Below, piece after piece: positions 16,192-40,355 of a stretch of DNA of 64,000 bases (its first letter is position 1; each line of letters starts with the position of its first letter). Source of the stretch: an uncultured Thermoleophilaceae bacterium. Its GTDB lineage: Bacteria; Actinomycetota; Thermoleophilia; Solirubrobacterales; Thermoleophilaceae. Where the stretch lies: assembly GCA_963748315.1 (NCBI GenBank), contig CAVVIK010000003.1, positions 4,996-68,995 of the forward strand, in the 5' to 3' direction. Made by a program: the position numbers and the translations under genes. The notes beneath the pieces were generated by a model, which saw only the letters and a list, made by a program, of their open reading frames with translations, made no database searches and was not told the DNA's origin.

Positions 16192-16224
16192 GGCGGGACC
16201 CTACCTCTGATAGTCAGACAGGCC

Positions 16225-17349
16225 GTGCGCCGCCTGGTCCTGCTCGTCAGCGCGATCACCCTGCTCGACGTCGCCTTCTTCGCGGCGGTGGCGCCGCTGC
16301 TCCCGCACTACGTCGACGAGTTCGACCTCTCCAAGAGCGCCGCGGGGATCCTCACGGGTGCCTACGCCGCCGGCAACCTGGTCGCCGCGATTCCCGCCGG
16401 CTGGCTCGCCGGCCGCTGGGGAGTGAAGCCGACAACGATCGCGGGCCTGGCCGGCCTGGCTGTCTCGAGCCTCGTGTTCGGGCTCGCGCAGGACATCTGG
16501 CTCCTCGACGCCGCCCGCTTCACCCAGGGCCTTGCGAGCGCGTGCACCTGGGCCGCGGGCTTCGCGTGGGTCGTGGAACGCGCGCCGGCCGGACGGCGGG
16601 GTGAGGTGATCGGCACGCCGCTCGCCGCGGCGGTTGCCGGGACGCTCGTCGGACCTGTCCTCGGCACCGCCGCGGACGCGGCCGGGCCGGAGATCGTCTT
16701 CGCGGGCGTCGCGCTCGTCGCCGTCGCCCTGATCGTGCCGGCATCGCGCGAGCCGGCGCCGCCGGGCGAGCCGGCCGACATCCGGCGGGTCGTCGCGGCC
16801 ACGCGCATCCCGGCGGTCAGGCTCGGGTTCTGGCTCGTAGCGCTGCCCGCGCTCGCGGCGGGCGTCCTGAACGTCCTCGTCCCCCTGCGGATGGACGCGC
16901 TCGGTGCCGCCAGCGTCGCGATCGGCGGGACCTACCTCGTGGCGGCGACCCTCGAGACGATCGTCAACCCGCTCGTCGGCCGCTTCTCCGATCGCCGCGG
17001 CAGGCTCGTGCCGATACGCGCCGGGCTGCTCGCCGCGGCGGTGCTGCTCGTGTTGCTGCCGATCCCGGAGTCGGCCCCGGTCGTGGCTGTGCTCTTCGTG
17101 TGCACGGCGCTCACGACCGCCGCGTTCTGGACGCCGGCGATGGCGCTGCTCTCCGACGAGGTCGAGAGGGCGCGCGTGCACCAGGGATACGCGTTCGCGT
17201 TCACGAACATCGCGTGGTCGATCGGGCAGCTCGCGGGCAACGGCGGCGGCAGCGCGATCGCCCAGGCGACCGCGGACTGGGTCAGCTACGTCGCGGTCGC
17301 TGTTCTCTTCGCCGTCACGCTCGCGCGTCTGACGCGTCGGCCGGCGTAG
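16225..17349 (+). CDS. MFS transporter
   Basis: The hydrophobic multi-TM region from GTG 16225 reads VRRLVLLVSAITLLDVAFFAAVAPLLPHYVDEFDLSKSAAGILTGAYAAGNLVAAIPAGWLAGRWGVKP. The upstream part of ORF 15700-17349 is antisense to two real genes and is discounted. Confidence 0.7.
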   Translation: MRRLVLLVSAITLLDVAFFAAVAPLLPHYVDEFDLSKSAAGILTGAYAAGNLVAAIPAGWLAGRWGVKPTTIAGLAGLAVSSLVFGLAQDIWLLDAARFTQGLASACTWAAGFAWVVERAPAGRRGEVIGTPLAAAVAGTLVGPVLGTAADAAGPEIVFAGVALVAVALIVPASREPAPPGEPADIRRVVAATRIPAVRLGFWLVALPALAAGVLNVLVPLRMDALGAASVAIGGTYLVAATLETIVNPLVGRFSDRRGRLVPIRAGLLAAAVLLVLLPIPESAPVVAVLFVCTALTTAAFWTPAMALLSDEVERARVHQGYAFAFTNIAWSIGQLAGNGGGSAIAQATADWVSYVAVAVLFAVTLARLTRRPA

Positions 17350-19126
17350 TACGCGATCGCTGCGCCCACGAGCGTCAGCGCCACGCCGAGCCACGACGGG
17401 CCGGAGCTCCGCTCCGTCGCCGCCGGCTCATCTGCCGGTTCTAAGACAGGCGAGGCGTCGTCCTCCGAGATGCCCTGCGCCGGTGCCGGCCCGGGCACGT
17501 CCTTGTCAGCCGCTTTCGGCTTTTCCTTCGGTGGTTTCGCCGTTCCGCCCCCGTTGCCGGCACCACCGGACACGGGCGCCCCGCCACCGCCGCTCGAGTC
17601 GGTGGCCGCTCGCGTCCGCTGGCGCGGCACGGCTGCGAACGGCAGTGGCTTGCGCTTCAGGGCCATCAGCGCCTGCGCTGTCACCCACACCGGCGTCTGC
17701 GCGCTGACGCGCGAGTAGTCGACACTGCCGTCGCCGTTCTGCCGCGCGCGCAGGTAGCCGATCGGCGAGTTGCCGCTCTTGCGGAAGCGGCCGGGGTTGC
17801 GCTCAGCGGCGACGAGGCCCTGGACGGCGTAGGCGGTCGACTGCGAGTTCGAGCTGCGGCCCTCGAACTGCCCGAAGCCGCCGTCGCCGTTCTGCGCACG
17901 GCGCAGGTAGCCGACCGCGTCGTCGAGCGGGCCACCCCGCCCGGCCGTGGCCAGCGCCTGCATCGCTGCCCCCGTGTTGTCGACGTCCGACTGCGCGCTG
18001 GGCGACAGCCCGAACCCGCCGTCCTCATTCTGCTGCCGCGCGAGCCAGCGCGCCGGCTTGTTCGTGCCGGCGTCGGCGGCGCGCAGCGCGAGGATCCCGA
18101 ACGCCGTGTAGGAGATGAAGCCGGAGAACGAGCCGTCGGCGCGGCGATAACCGTTGAGACGCGCGACGAAGTCGCGTCCCGCGAAGTCGCGCGCGTTCAG
18201 CCCAGCCGCTTCGATCACGAGAATCGTTCGCTCGATCTCCCCCACGTCGCGGATCTGGCGCGCGCCGGAGCGGATGTAGTCGATCGCGCTGTGGCCGCGG
18301 CGCTCCACGTCGCGAGGATTGCGCCCGGCCGACGCGAGGCCGAGCGACGCCCATCCGGAGTACAGCGCGCCCGACGCTGTGCCCGGCGTGCTTCCGAACC
18401 CGCCGTCCTTGTTCTGCGCTTTCGCCATGTACGCGGCCGCGCGCTTGCTCGGGGACGCAGCGGATGCGCCGGCGGGCAGCGCGAGCATTAGGAGCACGGC
18501 GCCCGCGGCCACTGCGGCGGGCGCCCAGCGCACCTCGAAGCGGCGCCGGTAGCGCGACAAAGCGCGCAACAGCCCGGGCCCGATCAGCAGGCAGAAGACG
18601 ACGTTCCCGATCACGTGCGCGAGGTTGTACGGCAGCGAGCTGGCGCTCACGGCGATCCACGTGGCAAGGTCCTGCTCCGCGGCGAGCGTCCACTGGTAGG
18701 TGTCCATCACCGCGCCGAAGCCCGCGCCGGCGACCGCGCATGCGAGCGCGAGCGGCCAACGGCCGAGCTCGCGTCCGCGCGTCGCGCGTGCGAGCAGCGC
18801 GCCGCTGACGCCGACGCCGCCCCAGGCGACCATCTGCCACGGCGTCCACGGCCCGTGGCCCATGAAGATGTTCGAGACGACCGGGGTGATCGCGCCCACC
18901 GCGAACCCCGGCGCGCCGCCGAGCGCGTATCCCGACAGCAGGATGATGTCGGTGGTGGGCTTCACGTTCGGGAACGCCGCGAACGCGAGCCGCCCGACCA
19001 CGGCGAGGCCGGCCATCGCCGCGACGAGCGCGAGCACGCGCGCGCTCGGGCGCGAGCGCTCGTACCAGGCGAAGCCCGCGTCAGGACGACCGCGAGGATC
19101 GCGAATGACGCGAGCTGCCAGGTCAT
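17286..19126 (-). CDS. ECF transporter S-component fused to an extracytoplasmic prenyltransferase/squalene-cyclase-like alpha/alpha-toroid domain, with C-terminal TM anchor; apparent 1-nt frame break near 19,079
   Basis: ORF 17286-19037 has three parts. First is a ~170-aa polytopic S-component-like region (FPNVKPTTDIILLSGYALGGAPGFAVGAITPVVSNIFMGHGPWTPWQMVAWGGVG). Next is a domain with repeated QN.DGGFG-type motifs: AQNKDGGFG, RRADGSFSG, QQNEDGGFG, AQNGDGGFG and RQNGDGSVD. Last is a Gly/Pro/Lys linker and the TM WLGVALTLVGAAIAYYAG. ATG 19126 (MTWQLASFAILAVVLT) overlaps the EcfA stop as ATGA but sits in another frame. Confidence 0.7.
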
Positions 19127-20697
19127 CGGACGAGCTCCTCCGCCAGGAGCGCCGCGCCCGCCTCGGGCGTGAGCGCGCCGCCGGCCCCGTCGAGGATGCG
19201 CGCGACGTCCGTCGCGAAATGCCTGCCGCCGGCGAGGACGCTCGCCGCCGAGCCGTCGGCGATGACGTTGCCCTGGCCCATCAGCACGATGCGCTCGGCC
19301 CAGCTGGCGGCGAACTCGGTGTCGTGCGTCGCGACGATCACTGCGAGGCCGCGGCCGGCGAGCTCGCGAAGGCGCTGGCCGAGCGCCTCCTTCCAGCCGC
19401 GGTCCATGCCGCGCGTCGGCTCGTCGAGGCACACGACCGCGACGTCGTCTCCCTCGAGCACGATCTCGAGCGCCAGGCGCTGGCGTTCGCCGCCGGACAG
19501 GTCGCGCGGGTGCTTCGCCTCGCGGCCCGCCAGCCCGGCGCGCGCGATCGCGTCCGAGCCGGCCTCGTCGGCCACGTGCTCGTGGATCAGGAAGTCGCCG
19601 GGGTTCTGGAGCAGTAGCGCGACCTCGCCGCCGCGGACGACGCGGCCGCGTGTCGGATCGACGAGGCCCTTGGCGTGGCGCAGGAGCGTGCTCTTGCCCG
19701 CGCCGTTGCGCCCCATCAGCGCGACAAGCTCGCCCGGCCGCAGGTCGACATCAATGCCGCGCAGGATCGCCGGCCCGTCGGCGATCTCGTGCCAGACGCC
19801 CTCGAACCGCAACGCGGGACGGGCCCCCGCCTTCGGCGGATCCGGCGCCGCGGCGGCGGCGGCCGGCGCCAGGCCCGCGCCGTGGATCCGGTCGCGCGCC
19901 TCCTTGACCGACACGGGCGGCGGGCCTATTCCGGCGAGCGAGAACAGCCGCGCGGCCGGCGTCGCGAGCACGGAGCCGCGCTCGGTCGCCCAGTCGAGAA
20001 ACGCAGCCGGGCCCGCGTCGAACACGACCCGCCCGTCCTCCATCGCAAGCACGCGGTCCGCCGCCGGCAGGCAGCGCTCGACACGGTGCTCGGCCAGGAG
20101 GACCGCCGTTCCCCACTCCTCGTTCAGCCGCCGTAAGAGCCACACGAGGTCGTCGCCCGCGACCGGGTCGAGCTGCGAGGTCGGCTCGTCGAGCACGAGG
20201 AGAGACGGCTTGCCGGCGACGGCCGCAGCGAGCGCGACACGCTGCAGCTCGCCGCCCGAGAGCGTGTCGGTGCGGCGCTCCAGGAGATGGGCGACGCCCA
20301 GCTCGAGCGCAGCCTCCTCGACCGCGCGGGCGATCGCCGCCGCCTCGAGCCCGCGCTGCTCGAGTGGGAGCGCGAGCTCGGCGCGCACGCCGCTCATGAC
20401 GACCTGCGTCTCCGGGTCCTGGAGCAGCGTCGCGCAGCTCGCGGCCAGCTCGTTCGGGCCGTGGTCGCGGACGCTCATCCCGGCAACCTCGAGCTCGCCG
20501 TGCGCGTCGCCGCCGTGGAAGTGCGGCACTAGGCCGCACGCGGCGCGCAGGAGCGTCGACTTGCCGGAGCCCGACTCGCCGACCACGAGCGTGAAGGACC
20601 CCGGCTCGAGCTCGAGCGTGAGATCCGCGAGCGCGTCCTGTGCGGCGCTCGGGTACCGGTAGCCGAATCCCTCGGCGCGGAGCACGGGCTCAGGCAT
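19123..20697 (-). CDS. ECF transporter energy-coupling ATPase, fused EcfA-EcfA' (two ABC domains)
   Basis: The 524-aa ORF has two Walker A motifs (GESGSGKST, GRNGAGKST). It also has two signatures (LSGGELQRV, LSGGERQRL) and two Walker B motifs (LLVLDEPTS, VVCLDEPTR). Confidence 0.9.
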   Translation of the reverse strand: MPEPVLRAEGFGYRYPSAAQDALADLTLELEPGSFTLVVGESGSGKSTLLRAACGLVPHFHGGDAHGELEVAGMSVRDHGPNELAASCATLLQDPETQVVMSGVRAELALPLEQRGLEAAAIARAVEEAALELGVAHLLERRTDTLSGGELQRVALAAAVAGKPSLLVLDEPTSQLDPVAGDDLVWLLRRLNEEWGTAVLLAEHRVERCLPAADRVLAMEDGRVVFDAGPAAFLDWATERGSVLATPAARLFSLAGIGPPPVSVKEARDRIHGAGLAPAAAAAAPDPPKAGARPALRFEGVWHEIADGPAILRGIDVDLRPGELVALMGRNGAGKSTLLRHAKGLVDPTRGRVVRGGEVALLLQNPGDFLIHEHVADEAGSDAIARAGLAGREAKHPRDLSGGERQRLALEIVLEGDDVAVVCLDEPTRGMDRGWKEALGQRLRELAGRGLAVIVATHDTEFAASWAERIVLMGQGNVIADGSAASVLAGGRHFATDVARILDGAGGALTPEAGAALLAEELVR

Positions 20698-21571
20698 GCG
20701 CCACCCCCAGCCGCGCGCGGGCGCCGGCGAACGGTGCCAGCGCGAGAAGCGGCAGCAGCACGACCGCGGCGACGTCGGCCGGGGCCGCCGCGACCGCGAG
20801 CGTCGGGTAGGGGTCGAAGCCGCCGGCGCCTGCCACGCGCGTCGCGATCGCGGTTACCGCGATCGCCCCCGCTGCCAGCGCCACGCGCACGTCGTGGCGC
20901 GACCACGGCGCGGCATACCGCGGCGGCCGCTGCGCAGACGCATACCCGCGCAGCTCGAGCGCCGCCGCGACGTCCACCGCCCGCTCGAGCGCTCCCGCGA
21001 GTGTCGCGCGCGCGACCGCTGCGCGCGCGGGCGGCCGCGGCCGGCAACGCGCCGCGTCGCCCATCCTGAGCGCGTCCCGCGCGAGCACCGGCGCGAGCCG
21101 GGTGGCGAGCGACGCGGTGAGCGCGCTGCGGTACGACACGCGCCGCACGAGTCGCAGGAGGTCATCGGGATCGACACATGCGGAGAACAGGGCCAGCGCC
21201 AGCGCGAGCACGAACAGGCGCAGGCCGGCGGCGCCGCCGTAGGCGATCGCCTCGAGCGTGATCTCGATCCGATAGCCGAGCACCTCGCCGCCGCGGAACA
21301 GGAGCGTCGCCCCCTCGCGGTAGACGAGCGGGTTGATGATCACGATCAGGAGCACGAGCGGCACGGCGAGCCGCGCCGCGCGCGCGAGCTCCGCGCCGAC
21401 GCCGGCCGCGATTCCGGCGAGCGTCGCGGCGGCGAGCCCGCCCGCGAGCACGAGCGGGCTGTCGTAGAGCATCGGGACGAGTGCGAGCGCCGCGCAGAAG
21501 GACGTCGTCGCGCCGGCGCGGGCGGCGTGGAGCGGGCTCGGCCGCGGCTGGTATGTGGGCACGAGCCTCAT
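20690..21571 (-). CDS. ECF transporter transmembrane T component (EcfT / CbiQ family)
   Basis: ATG 21571 overlaps the upstream stop as ATGA. It reads MRLVPTYQPRPSPLHAARAGATTSFCAALALVPMLY...ITLEAIAYGGAAGLRLFVLALALALFSACVDPDDLLRLVRRVSYRSALTASLATRLAPVL...ALELRGY. The stop overlaps the EcfA start by 8 nt. Confidence 0.8.
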   Translation of the reverse strand: MRLVPTYQPRPSPLHAARAGATTSFCAALALVPMLYDSPLVLAGGLAAATLAGIAAGVGAELARAARLAVPLVLLIVIINPLVYREGATLLFRGGEVLGYRIEITLEAIAYGGAAGLRLFVLALALALFSACVDPDDLLRLVRRVSYRSALTASLATRLAPVLARDALRMGDAARCRPRPPARAAVARATLAGALERAVDVAAALELRGYASAQRPPRYAAPWSRHDVRVALAAGAIAVTAIATRVAGAGGFDPYPTLAVAAAPADVAAVVLLPLLALAPFAGARARLGVAHA

Positions 21572-22497
21572 TCGCCGTCCTCCGGCAGCGGGAGCTTGAC
21601 CGGCCCGTCTGCGGTGGCTGCGACGGCGAACGCGTTGCGCAGCGAGCGCGCGTCGAGGATGGAGGCCGCCGCCTGGACGCCGAGGTCGTCGAGCCCGGTC
21701 ACGATCCACACCACGGCCTGCTCCTCGAGCGCGGTCGCGGCCACGAGGCCGGTGCCCGGGTCGGCGGTTTGCACGGCGTCGCCATCCTCGTCGAGTAGCT
21801 CGAGCCGCTGGCCGTCATCGGTGAAGCGCGCGAACACCCCGCTCGCCTCGGGCCCCTCCTCGAGCAGGGCGGGCGTGCGCACGTCGCGCAGCTCGTCCCA
21901 CGTCCCCACGAGCACCCGGACGAGGTCCTTGCCGCCCGAGGCCGCGAGCTGCGATGAGCTGACACGCGCGCCGACGCCGGTCAGCGAGTCCTTGACGGAG
22001 GAGCACGCCTCGTCGTCCGAGTCGGCGCACTCGAGCCGAACCGGCAGCCGCTCGCCCTCGAGACCGCTGCGGAACGGCTCGGGGTAGGCGCCGACGATCG
22101 CCGGTATGCGCTCCTTCGCGCTCCAGTCGCGGTTGTCCCACTGGATCACGTCGCCGGCGTGCACTTCCCAGTCCGCCGCGCCGCGGTCGGCCCAGATGCC
22201 GTTTACGTAGTAGAACCAGTCGCGCGTGCCGCCGCCGCCCCCGGAACCCTCGAGGCCGTCGATCGCCTCCACGAAATTGCCGCCGAAGCGCGTGTCGACG
22301 TCGTGCTGCGACTGGAGCAGGCGCATGACGCTCTCGTCCTCGTGCACCGTGTCGATCTTGTCGGCGGCCAGCTGCTCGTGGCCGAAGTCCTTCGTCACAC
22401 GGATGTCTGCGCCGCCGTCCTGCGCCTCGCCCTCGCCGAACCCGCATCCGCCGAGGCAGATGGCGATGGTGAGGGCGACGGCGGCGACGCGTGTCAC
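21568..22497 (-). CDS. lipoprotein with DUF4430 (transcobalamin-like C-terminal) domain plus an unassigned C-terminal domain
   Basis: GTG 22497 overlaps the upstream stop as GTGA. The signal and lipobox read VTRVAAVALTIAICLGGC. The DUF4430-type pattern is SVMRLLQSQHDVDTRFGGNFVEAIDGLEGSGGGGGTRDWFYYVNGIWADRGAADWEVHAGDVIQWDN. Confidence 0.7.
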   Translation of the reverse strand: MTRVAAVALTIAICLGGCGFGEGEAQDGGADIRVTKDFGHEQLAADKIDTVHEDESVMRLLQSQHDVDTRFGGNFVEAIDGLEGSGGGGGTRDWFYYVNGIWADRGAADWEVHAGDVIQWDNRDWSAKERIPAIVGAYPEPFRSGLEGERLPVRLECADSDDEACSSVKDSLTGVGARVSSSQLAASGGKDLVRVLVGTWDELRDVRTPALLEEGPEASGVFARFTDDGQRLELLDEDGDAVQTADPGTGLVAATALEEQAVVWIVTGLDDLGVQAAASILDARSLRNAFAVAATADGPVKLPLPEDGE

Positions 22498-23188
22498 TCG
22501 ACGCGCACCCTCTCTGCGAACGAGCGGACGAAGCCGTCCTTCTCCGCGTACAGCCGGTGTGCGCCGGAGGCGAGGGCCAGCGTCGCGGTCCCGTCCGAGT
22601 CGGTCTCGGCCGTGCGGTTGCCGGCATGAACCGTCGCGCCCGCGAGCCGCGTGCCACGGCCCTCGTCGTCGTATGCGGTGACTCGCGCCGAGACGGTCCC
22701 CCCGCCCTCGTCGCGCACTCGCAGTCCGAGCGTCCGCTGGCAGCCGCCGACACGGAAGACGCAGTAGAACCACGTCACCCGCACGCGCCGCTTGATGCGC
22801 CCGCTGCCGAAGGGCCCGCTCGGGTCGGCGGCGCCGGTCGTGCCCTGCCGGTTGCCGACCTTGTAGACCCAGCCCGAGTCGCCGCGATTCCGGTCGTCGC
22901 CAATTTTGCGTACGAACAGGCTCGCCGGGTCGCAGGAGCCGGAGAAGTCGCGCACCTTAGCCTCGCCACGTCACTGCGCACGAGTGCGGCCAGCGGCGTC
23001 GCGCTGGGCACGCGGCAGCGGTGGTCACTCGCGCGTGTGCGCGTGCGTGCCGTGCCGACGGTCTCGCTCTTGGCCGTCCCGTCGCGGAAGACGACGAGCT
23101 GATCGAAGCGCGGCGCGCCGTTTGCGAGCGGCGCCACCGCCCCCGCAAATGCGAGGACGGCGGCGATCACGATCGCGGCTCGGGTCAC
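22494..23188 (-). CDS. secreted DUF4430 domain protein with C-terminal carboxypeptidase-regulatory-like Ig fold; apparent 1-nt frame break near 22,958
   Basis: GTG 23188 overlaps the upstream stop as GTGA. The signal peptide MTRAAIVIAAVLAFAGAVAPLANG and SATPLAALVRSDVARL are in ORF 22775-23188. The continuation KVRDFSGSCDPASLFVRKIGDDRNRGDSGWVYKVGNRQGTTGAADP...RVTWFYC plus GATVHAGNRTAETDSDGTATLALASGAHRLYAEKDGFVRS is in ORF 22494-22955. Confidence 0.65.
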
Positions 23189-24147
23189 CTGCGCCTGACC
23201 GTCTCGCAGTTGCGCTTGACGCGGTCGAGCTGGTCGACGCGCGCGACGTCGTCGCCGCGGCCGCAGCGGATCTTGTCCGACGCGTCGTCGCCGCGCGAGT
23301 TGATCCTGTCGTCGCCGGCGCGGCCGGCGAACCGCTCCGGGTTGTCGGTGCCGCGCATGCGGTCATCGCCACGGGTGCCAATTGTCCAACCGGTCAGCCA
23401 CCTGTCGCACTCGGAAGCGGAGTCCTCCCACACGCACAGGTGCAGCAGGTCCGTCTGGACGTCGCCATCTCGAACGCCGCGGATGAACGGCCGGCTGGCC
23501 TCGTCGAAGACGACCTCCGCGGTGCCGTCCGCACCCGTCATCACGTCGCCTGCGCCATCGAGTCGAACGCCCGCAGCCGGCATGACCGCGCCGTTGTCGT
23601 CGTATTCACGGACGTTCACGTCCACGGGAGTGCCCGCCTGCACCACGTTGTCGGACAGGACGAGTTCGAGCTCCTTGCCGACGTTCGTGCCGGTGTCGAG
23701 GTTCAGGAAGTACCACAGCACCTCGCCATGCGAGCGGTTGATTGGGAACTGGTCGGCGCCGATCTCCGGCAGGACGTGATCGACCTTGTAGCTCCAGAAC
23801 GCCGTGTCGCTGCCCACGAAGCCGCCGATACCGCATACGAACTTGCCGAAGTCGAACTCGTCGCTGACCTGCACCGGACGCAGGTCGCGGGTGAATTCGG
23901 CCGCCTGGAATACGAGACCGAGGGCCGACGGGCCGTCGATCGCGTAGCTGTTGCTAGTGCCGCCACACGCGGCGCTCGCTTCGTACGTCACGGAGTCGTG
24001 CACGTAGCGGAAGCCCGGGCCGATGTCGTGGCCGCCGGCCTCGACACGCAGCTTGGTGGTCACGGCATCGGCGATGGCGGGCGAAGCCGCCATCACCACG
24101 AACACGCACACGGCAAGAGCCGCGCGCTTCAGGGAATGGATGTGCAT
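23185..24147 (-). CDS. secreted DUF4430 domain protein with Ig-like middle region and RTX-like GDD repeats
   Basis: ATG 24147 follows GAAAGGG. The signal peptide is MHIHSLKRAALAVCVFVVMAASPAIADA. The DUF4430-type pattern is GPSALGLVFQAAEF...FGKFVCGIGGFVGSDTAFWSYKVDHVLPEIGADQFPINRSHGEVLWYF. The C-terminus is GTRGDDRMRGTDNPERFAGRAGDDRINSRGDDASDKIRCGRGDDVARVDQLDRVKRNCETV. Confidence 0.7.
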   Translation of the reverse strand: MHIHSLKRAALAVCVFVVMAASPAIADAVTTKLRVEAGGHDIGPGFRYVHDSVTYEASAACGGTSNSYAIDGPSALGLVFQAAEFTRDLRPVQVSDEFDFGKFVCGIGGFVGSDTAFWSYKVDHVLPEIGADQFPINRSHGEVLWYFLNLDTGTNVGKELELVLSDNVVQAGTPVDVNVREYDDNGAVMPAAGVRLDGAGDVMTGADGTAEVVFDEASRPFIRGVRDGDVQTDLLHLCVWEDSASECDRWLTGWTIGTRGDDRMRGTDNPERFAGRAGDDRINSRGDDASDKIRCGRGDDVARVDQLDRVKRNCETVRRR

Positions 24148-24182
24148 CAGAGGCACCCTTTCCTCGAGGGTTGACGTTGCCT

Positions 24183-24348
24183 GTGACCGGAGGCAGGTCT
24201 CCTGGCTCCCGGATTCGCCCTTCCGCGCCTTCCCGGGGTGCTGTCGCTCCCCAGTGGCTGCCATTGGCGGATGGCCTAGCCGGTCACAGTGGCGGGACCG
24301 CGCCGGATTTGCACCGGACTTCCCTTGACCACCGGTCGCCGCCCAGGA
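24183..24348 (-). promoter_or_regulatory. cobalamin (B12) riboswitch
   Basis: The minus strand reads GGTGGTCAAGGGAAGTCCGGTGCAAATCCGGCGCGGTCCCGCCACTGTGACCGG (core, ~24,280-24,335). It continues GCAGCCACTGGGG...CCCCGGGAAGGCG. The B12 box GAGCCAGGAGACCTGCCTCCGG follows (box at 24,192-24,207). This lies 36 nt upstream of ATG 24147. It matches the conserved Cbl-riboswitch core and B12 box from memory of the family consensus. Confidence 0.85.
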
Positions 24349-24546: not shown

Positions 24547-24810
24547 TCAGCGCCGGTCGTGGACGGTGAGCACGGCGCCGACGAGTAGGGCCACGAGCAC
24601 GGCCGTGGCCGCGGCGACCACCGCGAACGTCGTGTGGCCCTCCGCGTAGCCGGTCACGCGCGGGAGGCGCTCGAGCGCCAGCCAGCCGACCACCACGAGC
24701 GGCACCAGCATCGCCACCACGGCGGGCCACCACGCGTAGGGCTCCTCGCGCGTCGGGAGGGCGGCGTTCAGCCGGCCTGTCCGCAGCACGGCAGCGCGGC
24801 GAAGCACCAC
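24547..24810 (-). CDS. small hypothetical membrane protein (start uncertain; may begin at 24711)
   Basis: Two hydrophobic helices are visible: AVVAMLVPLVVVGWLAL and FAVVAAATAVLVALLVGAVL. At the longest start the ORF overlaps the PAP2 3' end. Confidence 0.3.
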   Translation of the reverse strand: MVLRRAAVLRTGRLNAALPTREEPYAWWPAVVAMLVPLVVVGWLALERLPRVTGYAEGHTTFAVVAAATAVLVALLVGAVLTVHDRR

Positions 24811-25460
24811 GTCGTGGCGACGAGATACCCGCCGGCGACGTCGCTCGGGAAATGCCAGTCGAGCGACATGATCGCGAAGCCAACCGCGAGCGCGAAGAGT
24901 GCGCCGATGCAGCCGACCAGCGGCTTGAGCCGTGCGGGCGCGACCATCACCGCCGCCAGCGCTAGCGACATCGCCGCCGTGGCGTGCCCGCTGGGGAAGG
25001 CCTCGGCGGCGACGTCGAACTCGCCGAACGTCCCGCGTGGGTTCGCGAGCAGCGGCTTCAGCACCTGGCTCGTCACGTTCGCCCCGACCAGCATCACGCC
25101 CGCGGCAAGTCCGACGAGCGGATATCCACGCACGAACGCGATCGCGACGAGAATGAGCCCGATCAGCGCGAAGGGCTTGGGGTCCGCGAGCGTCGCAATG
25201 TTGTCCGCAAGTTCGGCGAGGCGGGGCCGCTGGAGCTCGCCAAAGCCGTGAAGCGCGCGCTGGTCGGCGGCGGCACCCGGCTCGGTCGTGTAGACGACCG
25301 CCAGCAGGACCAGGAAGGCGGCGACGCAGACAGCCGCGGCCGTCCAGAGCCGCCGGGGCGTATCCAGCATCCGTTCGAGGCTACTGAGCGCCCCCGCCGC
25401 AATCGCGGCCAAGAACGACCACGGCCGAGCCTCTAGAATCGCCCGTTCCCAGGCCGCCAT
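24768..25460 (-). CDS. PAP2 superfamily phosphatase (membrane)
   Basis: Three PAP2 motifs are present: KPLLANPR, PSGH and WHFPSDVAGG. The protein is polytopic. The longest start, 25460, overlaps tRNA-Glu by 8 nt, so the internal ATG at 25370 (MLDTPRRLW) may be the true start. Confidence 0.75.
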   Translation of the reverse strand: MAAWERAILEARPWSFLAAIAAGALSSLERMLDTPRRLWTAAAVCVAAFLVLLAVVYTTEPGAAADQRALHGFGELQRPRLAELADNIATLADPKPFALIGLILVAIAFVRGYPLVGLAAGVMLVGANVTSQVLKPLLANPRGTFGEFDVAAEAFPSGHATAAMSLALAAVMVAPARLKPLVGCIGALFALAVGFAIMSLDWHFPSDVAGGYLVATTWCFAALPCCGQAG

Positions 25461-25525
25461 CGTCTAGGGGACTAGGACGCCGCCCTCTCACGGCGGAAAC
25501 CGGGGTTCGAATCCCCGTGGCGGTA
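25453..25525 (+). tRNA. tRNA-Glu (anticodon CTC)
   Basis: A 73-nt cloverleaf. Acceptor GCCGCCA/TGGCGGT; D arm GTCT-AGGGGACTA-GGAC; anticodon arm CCGCC-CTCTCAC-GGCGG; T arm CGGGG-TTCGAAT-CCCCG; discriminator A. No CCA is encoded. Confidence 0.9.
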
Positions 25526-25527
25526 CT
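25506..25527 (+). repeat. direct repeat copy 1 (3' end of tRNA-Glu; putative attL)
   Basis: TTCGAATCCCCGTGGCGGTACT, identical to 27608-27629. Confidence 0.85.
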
Positions 25528-30035: not shown

Positions 30036-32740
30036 ATGAGGAGGGGGGTCTCCTGCGCAGTGATCGCGCTCGCCGCGTTGCCGGCGACTGCAGCCGCGCA
30101 GGATCCACCTCCGGTCACCGCCCCCGTCTTCCAGGGCTTCCGGTCGGTGCTCGCGCAGGGCGAGGGGCAGCAGCTCAACGCCGTCGAGTTCGGCTCCTAC
30201 CAGCTCTCCGGCGAGCCGCCCGAGACGTACACGAGCCAGCAGCCGCTCTACGTCGACATCATGCCGCGCGCGTCCGCGCTGACGACCGACGACCTCGACC
30301 GCTACTACAAGCACACGGAGTTCGGCGAGATGCCCGGCGGGGTCGGCACGCAGTACTCGCCGCGGCCAGGCGCGCAGGTCTTCCGCGACGCCGAGTTCGG
30401 GATGGCGCACATCTACGGCGACACGCGTTCCGACGTGATGTTCGGCGCGGGCTATGCGACGGCGGAGGAGCGGCTGTTCGCGATGGACATCCTCCGCCAC
30501 GCAGCGAAAGGAACGCTCGCCGAGCTGATCGGCCCGGACGGCGCCGAGATGGACCGCGAGCAGCTAACCGACCAGGACTTCACCGACGAGGAGCTGCGCG
30601 AGCAGTTCGACAACCTCCCGGAGCAAGTTCGGCGACACCGGCGTGCGCGGGCAGCAGGACATCCTCGACTACATCGCGGGCATCAACGCGCGCATCGACG
30701 ACGTGAAGAGCGACCCGACGATCCTGCCCGCCGAGTACGCGGCCCTCAACGTCAGCCCGGACGAGTGGGACGTGTCCGACAGCGTCGCGATGGCGGTGCT
30801 GCTGGTGACGCAGTTCACCGTGTCGAACGGCGGCGAGGAACGGAACGCGATGATGCGGCTCGAGTTCCGCAAGCGCTTCGGCAAGCGCTGGCGCGCGCGT
30901 TTCGACGACTTCCGCAACCGCGACGACCCGGAGACGTTCACGGTCGCGCGGCGCGAGCACCGCTCGGACAGGCCGGGCAGGCGGCGCGCGGGCGTGAACG
31001 TAATGCCGGACCTCGGCTCGATCGAGAGCTTCAATCCCCAGACGACGGGCCCGGGCGCCGCCGAGGCGGGCGCGACCGCGCCGTGGGTCGAGCGGGTGTC
31101 GAAGTTCAAGCGCGCCCTCCCCCACCACGCCTCGAACGGCGTCGTGGTCGGCTCGCGCTTCTCGGAGACCGGCCGGCCGCTGTGGGCCGCGGGCCCGCAG
31201 GTCGACTACTGGTCACCGCAGATCTTCGTCGAGTACGAGCTGCACGGAGGCGGGCTCGACGGAACCGGAGTGACGTTCCCCGGTGCCAGCCCGTGGCCAT
31301 TGATCGGACACGGGATCGACTTCGCATGGAGCGGCACGAGCGCGAACGGCGACAACCAGGACACGTTCGTCGAGTGGCTGTGCGAGCCGGACGGGTCCGA
31401 CCCGACGTCCGGAGAGCCGCAGCTACATGTACAAGGGCGACTGCACGCCGTTCCGCGAGCGCGACGTCTCGGTGACCACGCCGCCTCCGTCGGCCGGCAA
31501 CATGAGCCCGCAGGAGGAGATCGTCTACCACCCGCTGCGCTCCGTGCACGGGCCGGTCTTCGCGTTCGCGACGGTCGACGGCAAGCCCGTCGCGCTGACC
31601 AAGGCGAAGGGCGTCAACTTCCGCGAGCTCGACGCCGTGCTGCCGTTCATGCACGTGGCCGAGAACGAGCCGACCGGCTACCGGAGCTTCGTCCGCACCT
31701 TCAGCCCGTTCCCGGGGACGGAGAACTGGTTCTACGTCGACAACGAGCGCGCGGGCTTCATGCAATCCGGCTACTACCCCGCGCACGCGCGCGGAGCGGA
31801 CGTCGACCTCCCCTACAACGGCGACGGCAGCGGCGACTGGCAGGGCTTCGACCCCTCCGACTACACCTACGAGCACATCCCGCTTCGCCGGCGCCCGAAG
31901 GCGGTCGACTCGCGGCAGCCGATCATCATCAGCTGGAACCAGAAGGAGGCGCCCGGCTGGCGCAAGGGCCCGACCGAGTGGGGCGACGGGTCCGTCCACC
32001 ACGCCGAGATGCTCAACCGCTGGGTGCGGCGCGAGATCAGGAAGGGCGACGGCAAGATCGACCTGACCGCGCTGACGCGGGCGGTCAACCGCGCGGCGAC
32101 GACCGACCTGCGCGCGCAGCACGTCTACCCGTGGATGCGGCGCGTGATCCGCGGCGCGCGCGGCCAGAACAAGGAGCTCCTGGCACTCATCGACGAGTGG
32201 TGGAAGGCCGGCGGCCAGCGGCTCGACGAGGACGGCGACAACATCTACGAGCACAGCCCCGGTGTCGCGCTCTTCGACCAGTGGTGGCCGCTCTTCGTGC
32301 GCGCGTCGTTCCAGCCCGCGCTCGGCAAGAGCCTGTTCGACAAGGTCGAGGGCTTCCTCCCGCTCAGCAGCACGGTCTCAGGCGACTGGGGCTGGCGCTG
32401 GTCGAGCAACGTCGAGAAGGACCTGCGGATGGTGCTCGGACGCAGGGTCAGGGGCGCACACTCGCGTCTCTACTGCGGCGGCAAGAAGCAGCGCGGCGCG
32501 CGACGACGCTGCCGGGCGGTCCTGCTGCGGACGCTGAAAGACGCCGCTGCGGCCACCTCGGAGGAGTACGGCAGCGCCGACCCCGGCAACTGGCAGGTCC
32601 CGGCGCTGTGCGACGACGCCAGCCCGCCGACCTGCGACCAGAACGTCCCGACTGCGCTCGGGGCCGTGGACACCCCCGCCTTCCCGTGGCAGAACCGCGG
32701 GACCTACCACCAGGTCGTCGAGCTAACCGAGCACCGCTAG
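30036..32740 (+). pseudogene. penicillin acylase (S45, Ntn-hydrolase) family protein, two frame changes (~30,620-30,645 and ~31,415-31,430)
   Basis: The signal peptide is MRRGVSCAVIALAALPATAAAQ. The alpha-subunit part is FGMAHIYGDTRSDVMFGAGYATAEERLFAMDILRHAAKGTLAELIG (ORF 30036-31475). The beta-subunit N-terminal nucleophile region is HHASNGVVVGSRFSETGRPLWAAGPQVDYWSPQIFVEYELHGGG (ORF 30643-32937). The remainder YMYKGDCTPF...WFYVDNERAGFMQSGYYP...TYHQVVELTEHR* is in ORF 31427-32740. Confidence 0.75.
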
Positions 32741-40266: not shown

Positions 40267-40350
40267 GCGGATGTGGCGGAATTGGCAGACGCGCGGCGTT
40301 CAGGTCGCCGTGGGGGCAACCCCGTGGAGGTTCGAGTCCTCTCATCCGCA
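40267..40350 (+). tRNA. tRNA-Leu (anticodon CAG)
   Basis: 84 nt. Acceptor GCGGATG/CATCCGC; anticodon arm CGGCG-TTCAGGT-CGCCG; long variable arm TGGGGGCAACCCCGTG; T arm GGAGG-TTCGAGT-CCTCT; discriminator A. Confidence 0.9.
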
Positions 40351-40355
40351 CTAAC

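Follow-up and report, generated by a model that had tools for sequence, protein, structure and literature searches.

On balance, our analyses favour the reading of a minus-strand operon in the window (the whole 64,000-nucleotide stretch of DNA that was analysed) as encoding a dedicated (group I) ECF importer of corrinoids of the CbrTUV kind, with putative surface capture by DUF4430 proteins and a toroid, the operon being probably intact. A full-length cobalamin riboswitch heads the operon and is followed by three exported proteins (g1–g3), EcfT (g4), a fused EcfA-A' ATPase (g5) and a fusion of S-component and toroid (g6) (Table 1). This supports the outline drawn in an earlier note, namely a dedicated ECF importer behind a cobalamin riboswitch, with its S-component fused to an extracytoplasmic toroid and exported DUF4430 proteins alongside; the overlaps claimed there at all five gene junctions were each found in place. 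The claim of six genes holds in part, since g1, g3, g4 and g5 are open frames with the claimed domain content, whereas the lengths of g2 (695 nt, split over two frames) and g6 (1841 nt) are not divisible by three, and neither gene is a single ORF.

Table 1. Features of the operon in window coordinates.
Feature	Position	Strand	Basis or detail
Cobalamin riboswitch aptamer (RF00174)	24175..24348	-	cmscan, E=7e-22
Short leader, probable expression platform	24148..24174	-	sequence read directly
g1, exported protein, 320 aa	23185..24147	-	open frame; Sec-type signal peptide ...SPAIA/DA
Junction g1/g2	23185-88	-	GTGA start/stop overlap
g2, exported protein, 231 aa after repair	22494..23188	-	signal peptide ...APLANG/AP; 1-nt deletion near 22958
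Junction g2/g3	22494-97	-	GTGA start/stop overlap
g3, lipoprotein, 309 aa	21568..22497	-	lipobox G-C-G with invariant Cys18
Junction g3/g4	21568-71	-	ATGA start/stop overlap
g4, EcfT, CbiQ-type transmembrane T component, 293 aa	20690..21571	-	PF02361, 44.6 bits
Junction g4/g5	20690-97	-	ATGCCTGA overlap
g5, fused EcfA-EcfA' ATPase, 524 aa	19123..20697	-	two ABC_tran domains
Junction g5/g6	19123-26	-	ATGA start/stop overlap
g6, N-terminal CbrT-type ECF S-component domain	18528..19126	-	repaired residues 1-200
g6, TM7, residues 202-223	18459..18524	-	RYRRRFEVRW-APAAVAAGAVLLMLALPAGASA/AS, read directly
g6, toroid, residues 225-497	17637..18455	-	12-helix (alpha/alpha)6 barrel with QN.DGGFG repeats
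g6, C-terminal linker, TM anchor, basic tail and stop codon	17286..17636	-	AF2 model

The riboswitch that had been described as canonical was recovered over the full length of the RF00174 model (positions 1-189 of 189), scoring 93.2 bits where the gathering score is 31.5. Its reported distance of 36 nt from the operon fits when counted from the 3' strand of P1, but the aptamer match itself ends 27 nt from the ATG at 24147. Within the short leader that separates them, a Shine-Dalgarno-like GGAAAGG sits in a small hairpin (ACCCU-cgaggaa-AGGGU), no terminator-like site was found between 24148 and 24174, and MFE folding (z=0.4) did not resolve the expression platform. Regulation is probably translational, with the ribosome-binding site sequestered. 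The host is a soil actinobacterium of the class Thermoleophilia. A riboswitch precedes the operon in 8 of 8 orthologous loci searched with Rfam, and nhmmer located it in 72/72 Thermoleophilia species genomes holding the operon, a count that takes in only those genomes of the class having sequence upstream of it.

The transport core is made up of ECF components. The g4 match to PF02361 lies above the gathering score of 25 and is accompanied by TIGR02454 (E=1e-7), the synteny of EcfT being kept across all loci, while g5 contains PF00005 twice, likewise above the Pfam threshold (E=2e-43), with ECF_ATPase_1 and ECF_ATPase_2 as top NCBIfam matches. By sequence, the S-domain of g6 is a near full-length homologue of CbrT, aligning at residues 29-196 with residues 9-175 of the 182 in chain A of the ECF-CbrT structure (PDB 6FNP; phmmer E=2.1e-15, 31% identity; profile search E=4e-19). 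Because of this homology and of the riboswitch in 72/72 related genomes with upstream sequence, the corrinoid assignment is better founded than the earlier note had it. CbrTUV was predicted as a B12 ECF transporter by Rodionov et al. (2009), and the L. delbrueckii ECF-CbrT transports Cbl and Cbi, hemin being no competitor, and moves B12 in proteoliposomes without accessory protein (Santos et al. 2018). The window operon resembles these systems in its S-domain, EcfT, two ATPase domains, genomic B12 context and presumed substrates, cobalamin and cobinamide. It differs from ECF-CbrT, whose module is shared, in encoding its own dedicated module with fused A-A', in an S-component some 400 residues longer (TM7, toroid, linker and C-terminal TM), in co-encoding two or three exported DUF4430-type proteins and in its control by a cobalamin riboswitch.

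The proposal of three DUF4430 proteins stands firmly for g3 only. Its N-terminal transcobalamin-beta-like domain (residues 55-122; 22132-22335), followed by an alpha/beta domain, reached 50.8 bits with PF14478. In the AF2 model (pLDDT 88.8) this DUF4430 domain has the fold of the transcobalamin beta-domain, with Foldseek matches to 3U7Z (7e-5) and transcobalamin 2BB6 (3e-4), as well as to haptocorrin and intrinsic factor (4KKI, 2PMV), and a TMt of 0.70 and rmsd of 2.5 A against the beta-domain in 5NO0. The g3 gene was found in all related operons. In g1, a marginal DUF4430-like core (residues 98-147; 23707-23856) scores 20.8 bits, under the Pfam gathering score of 23.8 (23.0 bits for an orthologue; 318 aa at L081/L082), although an iterated HMM gave E=3e-8 and hhalign aligned it with the g3 domain at E=3e-4. 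Its C-terminal tail is rich in Asp and Gly; the claim that it is RTX-like comes down to two degenerate nonapeptides. For g2 no Pfam DUF4430 hit was obtained; a weak core at about 22764-22928 aligns with the g3 domain by hhalign (E=1e-4, probability 55%), and the C-terminus is a CarboxypepD_reg-like Ig/beta-sandwich domain (27-31 bits versus a gathering score of 32.3). With their marginal matches, g1 and g2 may be regarded as divergent, lineage-variable extra DUF4430-like proteins.

The toroid is joined covalently to the S-domain via an extra transmembrane segment, and a TM anchor at the C-terminus holds it in place. TM7, modelled by AF2 as a helix at residues 204-221, would act as an additional transmembrane or internal signal-peptide-like segment placing the toroid outside the cell, topology and any cleavage being predictions. 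The toroid itself gave the expected HMM matches (PF00432, 43-46 bits; PF13243, 38-42 bits) and was modelled with confidence (pLDDT about 95, 12 helices); in the joint S-toroid model (pTM 0.54) the inter-domain geometry is uncertain. The linker that follows is disordered and Gly/Pro/Lys/Asp-rich (pLDDT below 50 for residues 507-581), and leads to the anchor WLGVALTLVGAAIAYYAG (17340-17393; AF2 helix at 582-601).

In eukaryotic transcobalamin, intrinsic factor and haptocorrin (PF01122 plus PF14478), the beta-domain shares the fold of the g3 DUF4430 domain, and the 12-helix alpha/alpha barrel that accompanies g3 falls, broadly, into the toroid class of their alpha-domain; in both cases the two parts are extracellular and B12-linked, ligand binding being putative for the window proteins, which, unlike transcobalamin, carry the two parts on separate polypeptides. 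The earlier equation of the toroid with the transcobalamin alpha-domain is nonetheless not supported, as the g6 toroid had no PF01122 match and no transcobalamin, intrinsic factor or haptocorrin structure occurred within its Foldseek top 50. Its sequence places it among repeat proteins of the terpene-cyclase/prenyltransferase type, nearest to class II terpene cyclases (7XQ4, drimenyl diphosphate synthase, 1e-26; 1GSZ, squalene-hopene cyclase, 1e-20, in PDB profile searches) and to prenyltransferase beta subunits, families that also supplied its best Foldseek matches. That its kinship is with terpene cyclases more than with the alpha-domain of transcobalamin counts against a role in corrinoid capture. 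It shares with these enzymes repeated QxxDGGFG-type hairpins and an alignment that crosses the DxDD region, but differs in having one barrel only, a degenerate motif (DVDN, within SDVDNTG at 17970-17990; family consensus DxDM), no conserved Zn ligands, a predicted extracytoplasmic location and a tether to a transporter.

The way in which these parts are combined elsewhere bears on their function. Among the best 120 matches listed, all close g6 homologues carry the toroid-S fusion (about 610 aa each). Firmicutes have unfused or differently fused versions, a minority with a cobalamin riboswitch: in L. curvatus the toroid stands alone as an LPXTG protein, and the same gene set, named CbrVUT, lies in the 'cobalamin region' of an L. 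plantarum plasmid. The operon of Bacillus sp. N5-665 and B. cereus-like strains (L085, L087-L089) resembles that of the window in its S-component (35.5% identity), its toroid (E=8e-22) and the presence of EcfT, EcfAA' and DUF4430; however, its toroid is fused to DUF4430 in N5-665 (beta-then-alpha) and LPKTG-anchored, and none of these operons has a cobalamin riboswitch. Fusion of the toroid to S here and to DUF4430 in Bacillus therefore supports, in the Rosetta-stone sense, a functional coupling of the parts. As for the suggested association of toroid, DUF4430 and ECF genes behind cobalamin riboswitches, it was borne out in all 72 Thermoleophilia genomes with upstream sequence and in several other lineages, including toroid-containing operons of unrelated metagenomic lineages (GC 37-67%), but not in many Firmicutes homologues (0/3 annotated loci), and 12 of 20 toroid-containing metagenomic loci lacked the riboswitch.

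These data have to be weighed against an unlikely alternative, according to which an ECF-CbrT core imports B12, DUF4430 or CbrT alone binds the vitamin, and the toroid binds no ligand but is an enzyme or scaffold descended from a cyclase or prenyltransferase and serving, for example, in envelope anchoring, DUF4430 docking or corrinoid processing. The enzymatic kinship described above would be in keeping with this, as would the undetectable similarity to PF01122, the invariance of the first two Asp of DxDD across the toroid family (SDxD), the dispensability of accessory proteins for L. delbrueckii ECF-CbrT in proteoliposomes and the 25 metagenomic operons that carry DUF4430 without a nearby toroid. 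On the other hand, the third Asp of the motif is lost (N in g6, M in the consensus), the invariant Cys or His that a Zn site of the prenyltransferase kind would require is missing from the family, and the predicted location would keep the toroid away from isoprenoid diphosphates. The toroid also correlates with the riboswitch, present in 8 of 20 metagenomic operons with a toroid and in 1 of the 25 without, and appears repeatedly fused or adjacent to DUF4430, an arrangement like that of transcobalamin's alpha and beta domains.

A single base has to be restored in each of the two broken genes, near 22958 in g2 and near 19080 in g6 (after codon 15/16), relative to intact orthologues: at L082, g2 (231 aa) differs by a single-base gap, and g6 has 611 aa there, 616 aa in P0002 and 615 aa in P0241, the last being 94% identical to the repaired g6. 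That the frameshifts are real and the operon a decaying, non-functional pseudogene cluster, as these deletions and the truncated public gene call of the contig (583-aa ORF, P0001) might suggest, seems quite improbable to us. The same type of lesion affects unrelated neighbours, namely the adjoining PAP2 gene (single-base deletion at about 24786) and, twice, a penicillin amidase gene (30036-32740, scattered over three frames), making at least three more frame breaks in the window. Moreover, in-frame stops and other decay are lacking, coding sequence flanking each break is conserved (78-94% amino acid identity), intact copies exist at 94-97% identity (P0241, P0121), and matches split in a similar way occur at related loci from long-read MAGs, L007 among them. 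Because of the lesions in the PAP2 and penicillin amidase genes, the breaks are most likely assembly indels, and the operon is therefore probably intact in the organism; were they real, this copy would be inactive.

The earlier statement that no characterised ECF system has this architecture does not hold, as the core is of the CbrTUV type, with CbrT already characterised, and the five components all occur, as unfused proteins, in the L. sakei operon lsa1836-1840. Its deletion and complementation altered the intracellular heme signal, and its toroid and DUF4430 proteins were modelled as split transcobalamin alpha and beta domains for heme, with docking putting the heme between the alpha-like protein and its beta-like partner (Verplaetse et al., bioRxiv 10.1101/864751); the idea of a split transcobalamin with an ECF module is thus already in print. 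This operon and its L. curvatus counterpart (L084) share with the window the five component types, in the order toroid/DUF4430, EcfT, fused EcfAA', CbrT-like S; the S-domains of window and L. curvatus share 35% identity, and the LPXTG protein is recovered with the toroid profile (E=1e-15). Unlike in the window, the toroid is separate and LPXTG-anchored there, a single DUF4430 protein is present, the substrate assigned by the authors is heme, and no cobalamin riboswitch was detected at L084. That the only experimentally studied homologous operon is linked to heme uptake counts against corrinoids. Import of heme or another tetrapyrrole, scavenged by toroid and DUF4430, would agree with the L. 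sakei results, with the riboswitch-free L. curvatus orthologue near a Dyp-type peroxidase and with an S-domain slightly nearer to that of L. curvatus (35%) than to CbrT (31%), but appears very unlikely in view of the riboswitch conserved in the window's lineage and found in several others, the 55% identity between the S-components of the L. plantarum 'cobalamin region' and L. curvatus, the failure of hemin to compete with Cbl in ECF-CbrT, and the reliance of L. sakei heme binding on docking alone.

Under the favoured reading of a corrinoid importer, the riboswitch would switch the system off when cellular B12 is sufficient. Scarce extracellular corrinoids might be bound by the surface-tethered DUF4430 protein(s) together with the toroid and then handed to the adjacent CbrT domain, whose toppling against EcfT within the membrane would be powered by the ATPase activity of EcfA-A', while g1 and g2 may broaden ligand range or reach. 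Overall, the operon is a lineage-specific, fused version of a widespread gene set with a proposed role in B12 capture.

The operon on the minus strand of the window comprises three exported proteins (g1, g2 and g3), EcfT (g4), a fused EcfA-EcfA' ATPase (g5) and an S-component with an extracytoplasmic toroid on the same polypeptide (g6). The earlier note had placed a cobalamin riboswitch ahead of it, and the RF00174 check, when run with cmscan on the window, recovered the full-length aptamer (model positions 1-189 of 189) at 93.2 bits against a gathering score of 31.5 (E = 7e-22); all five start/stop overlaps named in that note are likewise present in the sequence as given. Between the end of the aptamer match and the g1 start codon (ATG 24147) there are 27 nt, and an SD-like GGAAAGG lies inside a small hairpin ahead of this codon. 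Since the terminator scan gave chance-level matches only, with no terminator-like element in the leader, this hairpin-embedded motif makes translational control likely. Minimum free energy folding of aptamer and leader (z = 0.4) did not yield a usable model of the expression platform, and the promoter scan detected no promoter. Taken at the level of sequence, the operon would very probably encode a riboswitch-repressed, dedicated (group I) ECF corrinoid importer of the CbrT type. The extracytoplasmic toroid and the DUF4430 proteins would provide a surface capture stage for this importer, and we are moderately inclined towards the combined reading of an importer equipped with such a stage.

EcfT matches PF02361 (CbiQ family) at 44.6 bits against a gathering score of 25, and g5 is one 524-aa protein with two PF00005 stretches (E = 2e-43), whose best NCBIfam matches, ECF_ATPase_1 and ECF_ATPase_2, both fall under their equivalog cut-offs. 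The first 200 residues of g6 reach only 23-24 bits with Pfam S-component models, under the gathering scores. Comparison with CbrT, the S-component of the crystallised ECF-CbrT complex, gave E = 2.1e-15 (residues 29-196 against 9-175 of 182 in 6FNP_A), and E = 4e-19 with a family profile, so that the S-domain is clearly homologous to CbrT. Prediction of CbrT and CbrTUV as a B12 ECF system preceded the validation of CbrT; ECF-CbrT (PDB 6FNP) transports cobalamin and cobinamide, without competition by hemin, and transport and binding of these two corrinoids have been demonstrated only for the L. delbrueckii complex. No B12 enzymes occur among the flanking genes sampled in the window. The 3' end of g6 overlaps that of a convergent MFS transporter gene by ~60 nt, an arrangement also found in L081, a comparison locus with the same operon and flanks. 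The window also carries two tRNA genes, of which tRNA-Glu is syntenic with the operon in loci L081, L082 and L004.

The segment that links the S-domain to the toroid resembles an internal signal peptide, with a basic n-region, a hydrophobic core and the sequence ASA/AS, and the fusion might be cleaved after insertion into two membrane-associated proteins. In the AF2 model of an intact g6 orthologue (P0002, 84% identical), residues 225-497 form a 12-helix alpha/alpha barrel (pLDDT about 95), followed by a disordered linker of ~85 residues and finally by a C-terminal TM helix; the positive-inside rule would place the barrel outside the cell. The toroid matches PF00432 (43-46 bits, gathering score 26.5) and PF13243 (38-42 bits, gathering score 26.1), in the PDB it is most closely related to drimenyl-diphosphate synthase (E = 1e-26), followed by squalene-hopene cyclase, and the Foldseek top 50 consist of terpene cyclases, prenyltransferases and one glycosidase. 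The proposal that it corresponds to the alpha domain of transcobalamin, intrinsic factor and haptocorrin (TC/IF/HC) did not hold, as PF01122, the model of that domain, gave no match on the toroid even at E<=10 and no TC, IF or HC structure appeared in the Foldseek top 50. What the toroid and that domain have in common is the general 12-helix alpha/alpha barrel. In TC/IF/HC the alpha and beta domains belong to one chain and enclose the ligand, whereas the operon encodes them as separate genes.

Alignment to terpene cyclases located a degenerate DxDD motif, which reads SDVDNT in the window, SDVDDT in SsDMS/drimenyl-PP synthase and SDxDMT in the family consensus. Whereas the first two Asp are invariant across the family, the third has been lost, and the toroid columns of the family alignment contain no invariant Cys or His for a prenyltransferase beta Zn site; for both reasons the toroid looks cyclase-derived and is probably non-catalytic. 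Its cyclase ancestry makes it plausible that it acts as a scaffold or an enzyme and not as a ligand binder. The capture role of the toroid and the DUF4430 proteins is suggested by the fold homology of DUF4430, the pattern of fusion and synteny and the linkage to the riboswitch, and we regard its chances as evenly balanced. A gene-calling artefact as the origin of the S-toroid fusion was rejected, because it is present as one ~610-aa ORF in all of the ~120 close homologues listed, which come from JGI, ENA and NCBI assemblies independent of one another.

All three exported proteins had been described as carrying DUF4430 (PF14478, transcobalamin beta-domain-like), a description that stands for g3 (50.8 bits, gathering score 23.8) and is weakened for the other two. 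In g1 the match (20.8 bits; 23.0 bits in its orthologue) remains under the gathering score, with E = 3e-8 against the iterated family HMM, and g2 has no Pfam DUF4430 match, its hhalign comparison with the g3 domain giving E = 1e-4 at a probability of 55%. Both g1 and g2 carry Sec-type signal peptides. The C-terminal domain of g2 is CarboxypepD_reg-like, slightly under threshold, and the 'RTX-like' tail ascribed to g1 reduces to two degenerate nonapeptides. The fold comparison, which among these proteins covers g3 alone, relates this lipoprotein, whose lipobox Cys is invariant, to the vitamin carriers: its AF2 model (pLDDT 88.8) retrieved the R. gnavus DUF4430 structure 3U7Z (7e-5) and transcobalamin 2BB6 (3e-4) in Foldseek, superposes on the transcobalamin beta domain 5NO0 with TMt 0.70 and rmsd 2.5 A, and also matches the beta domains of haptocorrin and intrinsic factor. 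Single-sequence and profile searches of g3 against the PDB returned no match, so the relation to the transcobalamin beta domain is known only from the fold search. The C-terminal alpha/beta domain of g3 is confidently modelled and has weak structural matches to BcsB and alpha-glucuronidase N-domains. In the full-text literature we found neither biochemical data on bacterial DUF4430 nor a paper on its function.

More than 5,700 proteins of the protein collection matched the S-toroid fusion at E<=1e-5, although some of them may cover just one domain; the best 120 are ~610 aa long and contain both, many being annotated merely as ECF S-component. The species-representative genomes gave at least 572 matched stretches that code for a relative, and the best 80 of these loci all belong to Thermoleophilia (Solirubrobacterales, Thermoleophilaceae and Conexibacter arvalis DSM 23288). 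The S-component is encoded in the same operon as EcfT and EcfA-A' throughout, the order g3-EcfT-EcfAA'-S~toroid being kept in 80/80 of the best loci wherever the contig allows. Upstream of this core lie one or two variable genes of g1 or g2 type, assigned by an iterated domain-HMM scan, which gave two DUF4430-like domains in 66 of 75 operons and three in 8 of 75. A cobalamin riboswitch precedes the operon in all eight Thermoleophilia loci checked with Rfam and, by nhmmer profile, in 72/72 of those among the best 80 that have upstream sequence. In two unrelated loci, probably by coincidence, the operon is followed at a distance of a few kb by riboswitches for c-di-AMP (ydaO-type).

Outside Thermoleophilia, tblastn against annotated plasmid and chromid records recovered an L. 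curvatus operon of the L. sakei lsa1836-1840 type. It encodes in order an LPXTG protein, DUF4430, EcfT, a fused ATPase and S, and a Dyp peroxidase gene lies in its vicinity; its LPXTG protein is matched by the Thermoleophilia toroid profile at E = 1e-15, and its S-component is 35% identical to that of the window and 55% identical to the S-component (CbrT) of an L. plantarum plasmid. That plasmid carries an EcfT-AA'-S-toroid-like-DUF4430 set, in a region termed by its authors a cobalamin salvage region with a transporter named CbrV/U/T. In Bacillus sp. N5-665, the first gene of a homologous ECF operon joins DUF4430 (56 bits) and toroid (E = 8e-22) in a single chain with an LPKTG anchor, a beta-then-alpha 'bacterial transcobalamin', whereas the toroid of the window is fused to S. 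Depending on the lineage, then, the toroid is joined to S, joined to DUF4430 or free, a Rosetta-stone pattern that argues for a physical or functional unit. A metagenome scan with Firmicutes-type S-components added 80 loci, almost all of which share the DUF4430-T-AA'-S core, and many of which contain toroids. Some operons place duplicated capture modules (TOR-DUF-DUF-TOR-DUF or DUF-DUF-TOR-DUF) before EcfT-AA'-S and behind cobalamin riboswitches. This riboswitch, absent from the three annotated Firmicutes loci, heads five of eight metagenomic operons examined with Rfam. By iterated nhmmer it was found in 8 of 20 toroid-containing operons with upstream context against 1 of 25 toroid-less ones, that one being weak, and its presence correlates with that of the toroid in these operons.

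The architecture had been put forward as unprecedented, yet the concept has already been published: work on L. sakei lsa1836-1840 described an ECF transporter supplied by extracellular alpha-like and beta-like 'transcobalamin' proteins, drew on HHpred, homology models and docking as well as on deletion with complementation, and gave heme as the substrate (bioRxiv 10.1101/864751). Heme or another tetrapyrrole as substrate of the Thermoleophilia system is nevertheless disfavoured, given that the cobalamin riboswitch is invariant here, and from the relationships found above the L. sakei assignment may merit re-examination against B12. Full-text searches turned up no paper that connects cobalamin riboswitches with prenyltransferase-like proteins and no description of an S-component-toroid fusion. 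While the type of system is known, its Thermoleophilia form, in which S is fused to the toroid, accompanied by two or three DUF4430-type proteins and preceded by an invariant cobalamin riboswitch, is an undescribed variant.

Both g2 and g6 had been taken as open genes, but their lengths of 695 and 1841 nt are not divisible by three and each is spread over two frames. Alignment with L081/L082, an Illumina-derived JGI reference sharing the operon and its flanks (PAP2 upstream; MFS, a 145-aa gene and a GMC oxidoreductase downstream), located single-base deletions at ~19080 in g6 and ~22958 in g2, with conserved coding sequence on either side. Repaired g6 starts with MTWQLASFAILAVVLTAGFAWYERSRPSARVLALV..., the exact N-terminus of close intact homologues of 611-616 aa, and also matches a 615-aa protein with 94% identity. 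Relative to the same reference, a single-base deletion near 24786 splits the PAP2-family gene, and the penicillin-amidase-family ORFs cover Pfam profile positions 2-66, 86-257 and 261-575, so that two further frame breaks are implied, which speaks for an assembly prone to indels. Since conserved genes that are unrelated to one another contain five breaks or more and show no decay otherwise, assembly indels are the best explanation. True decay of the operon in this organism is unlikely, since indels occur window-wide, and programmed frameshifting was rejected because orthologues are in-frame at both sites and unrelated genes share the type of lesion. The gene call in L081 joins EcfT and EcfAA' in one 792-aa protein, where the near-identical L082 has two genes (293 and 525 aa); this call reflects either an indel in the contig or a real T-AA' fusion.

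Location of the features discussed in the window and in the comparison loci
Feature	Location	Strand	Remarks
MFS transporter gene	window 16219-17349	plus	overlap with g6 at 17286-17349
g6	window 17286-19126	minus	
Degenerate DxDD motif SDVDNTG	window 17970-17990	minus	g6 residues 380-386
g6 linking segment	window 18459-18524	minus	residues 202-223; basic then hydrophobic; ends ...PAGASA/AS
g3 C-terminal alpha/beta domain	window 21568-22131	minus	residues ~135-309
g2	window 22494-23188	minus	
Cobalamin riboswitch aptamer	window 24175-24348	minus	RF00174
PAP2-family phosphatase gene	window 24547-25460	minus	directly upstream of riboswitch; two frames
tRNA-Glu(CTC)	window 25453-25526	plus	
Penicillin-amidase-family gene	window 30036-32740	plus	three overlapping ORFs, three frames
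tRNA-Leu(CAG)	window 40267-40351	plus	
EcfT + EcfAA' single call	L081:4365-6743		
c-di-AMP riboswitches	L010:14166-14286; L155:9915-10070		
L. curvatus operon	L084 (CP117684.1 112221-126664)		
Bacillus sp. N5-665 DUF4430-toroid gene	L085:1620-3386 (NZ_CP093325.1)		also L087, L089
Metagenomic operons with duplicated modules	L096:185-8696; L103:1139-8543; L090		also L092, L093, L100

ECF transporters are the textbook case of importers that need no substrate-binding protein, whether soluble or tethered. The clearest genomic hint to date that some of them use an external stage to capture a large and scarce ligand is an S-component covalently joined to a barrel that faces outward. The hint gains strength because transcobalamin-beta-like surface proteins are co-encoded with the fusion in every case and a B12 riboswitch invariably precedes it. 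The Thermoleophilia fusion also offers a natural 1:1 construct for probing external capture. More tentatively, the fusion and DUF4430 could form an obligate extracytoplasmic corrinoid-capture apparatus for an ECF transporter, with the toroid/DUF4430 pair as the two-gene ancestor of the TC/IF/HC family. If true, this would be the first front end resembling a substrate-binding protein in a transporter class defined by lacking one, and the three arrangements of the pair, joined to S, joined to each other or free, would document the origin of the eukaryotic single-chain carrier; animal B12 carriers may descend from a bacterial two-part module. The finding bears on two questions, the existence of an external binding stage in ECF transporters and the origin of eukaryotic B12 carriers, and the system marks the abundant soil Thermoleophilia as corrinoid scavengers.
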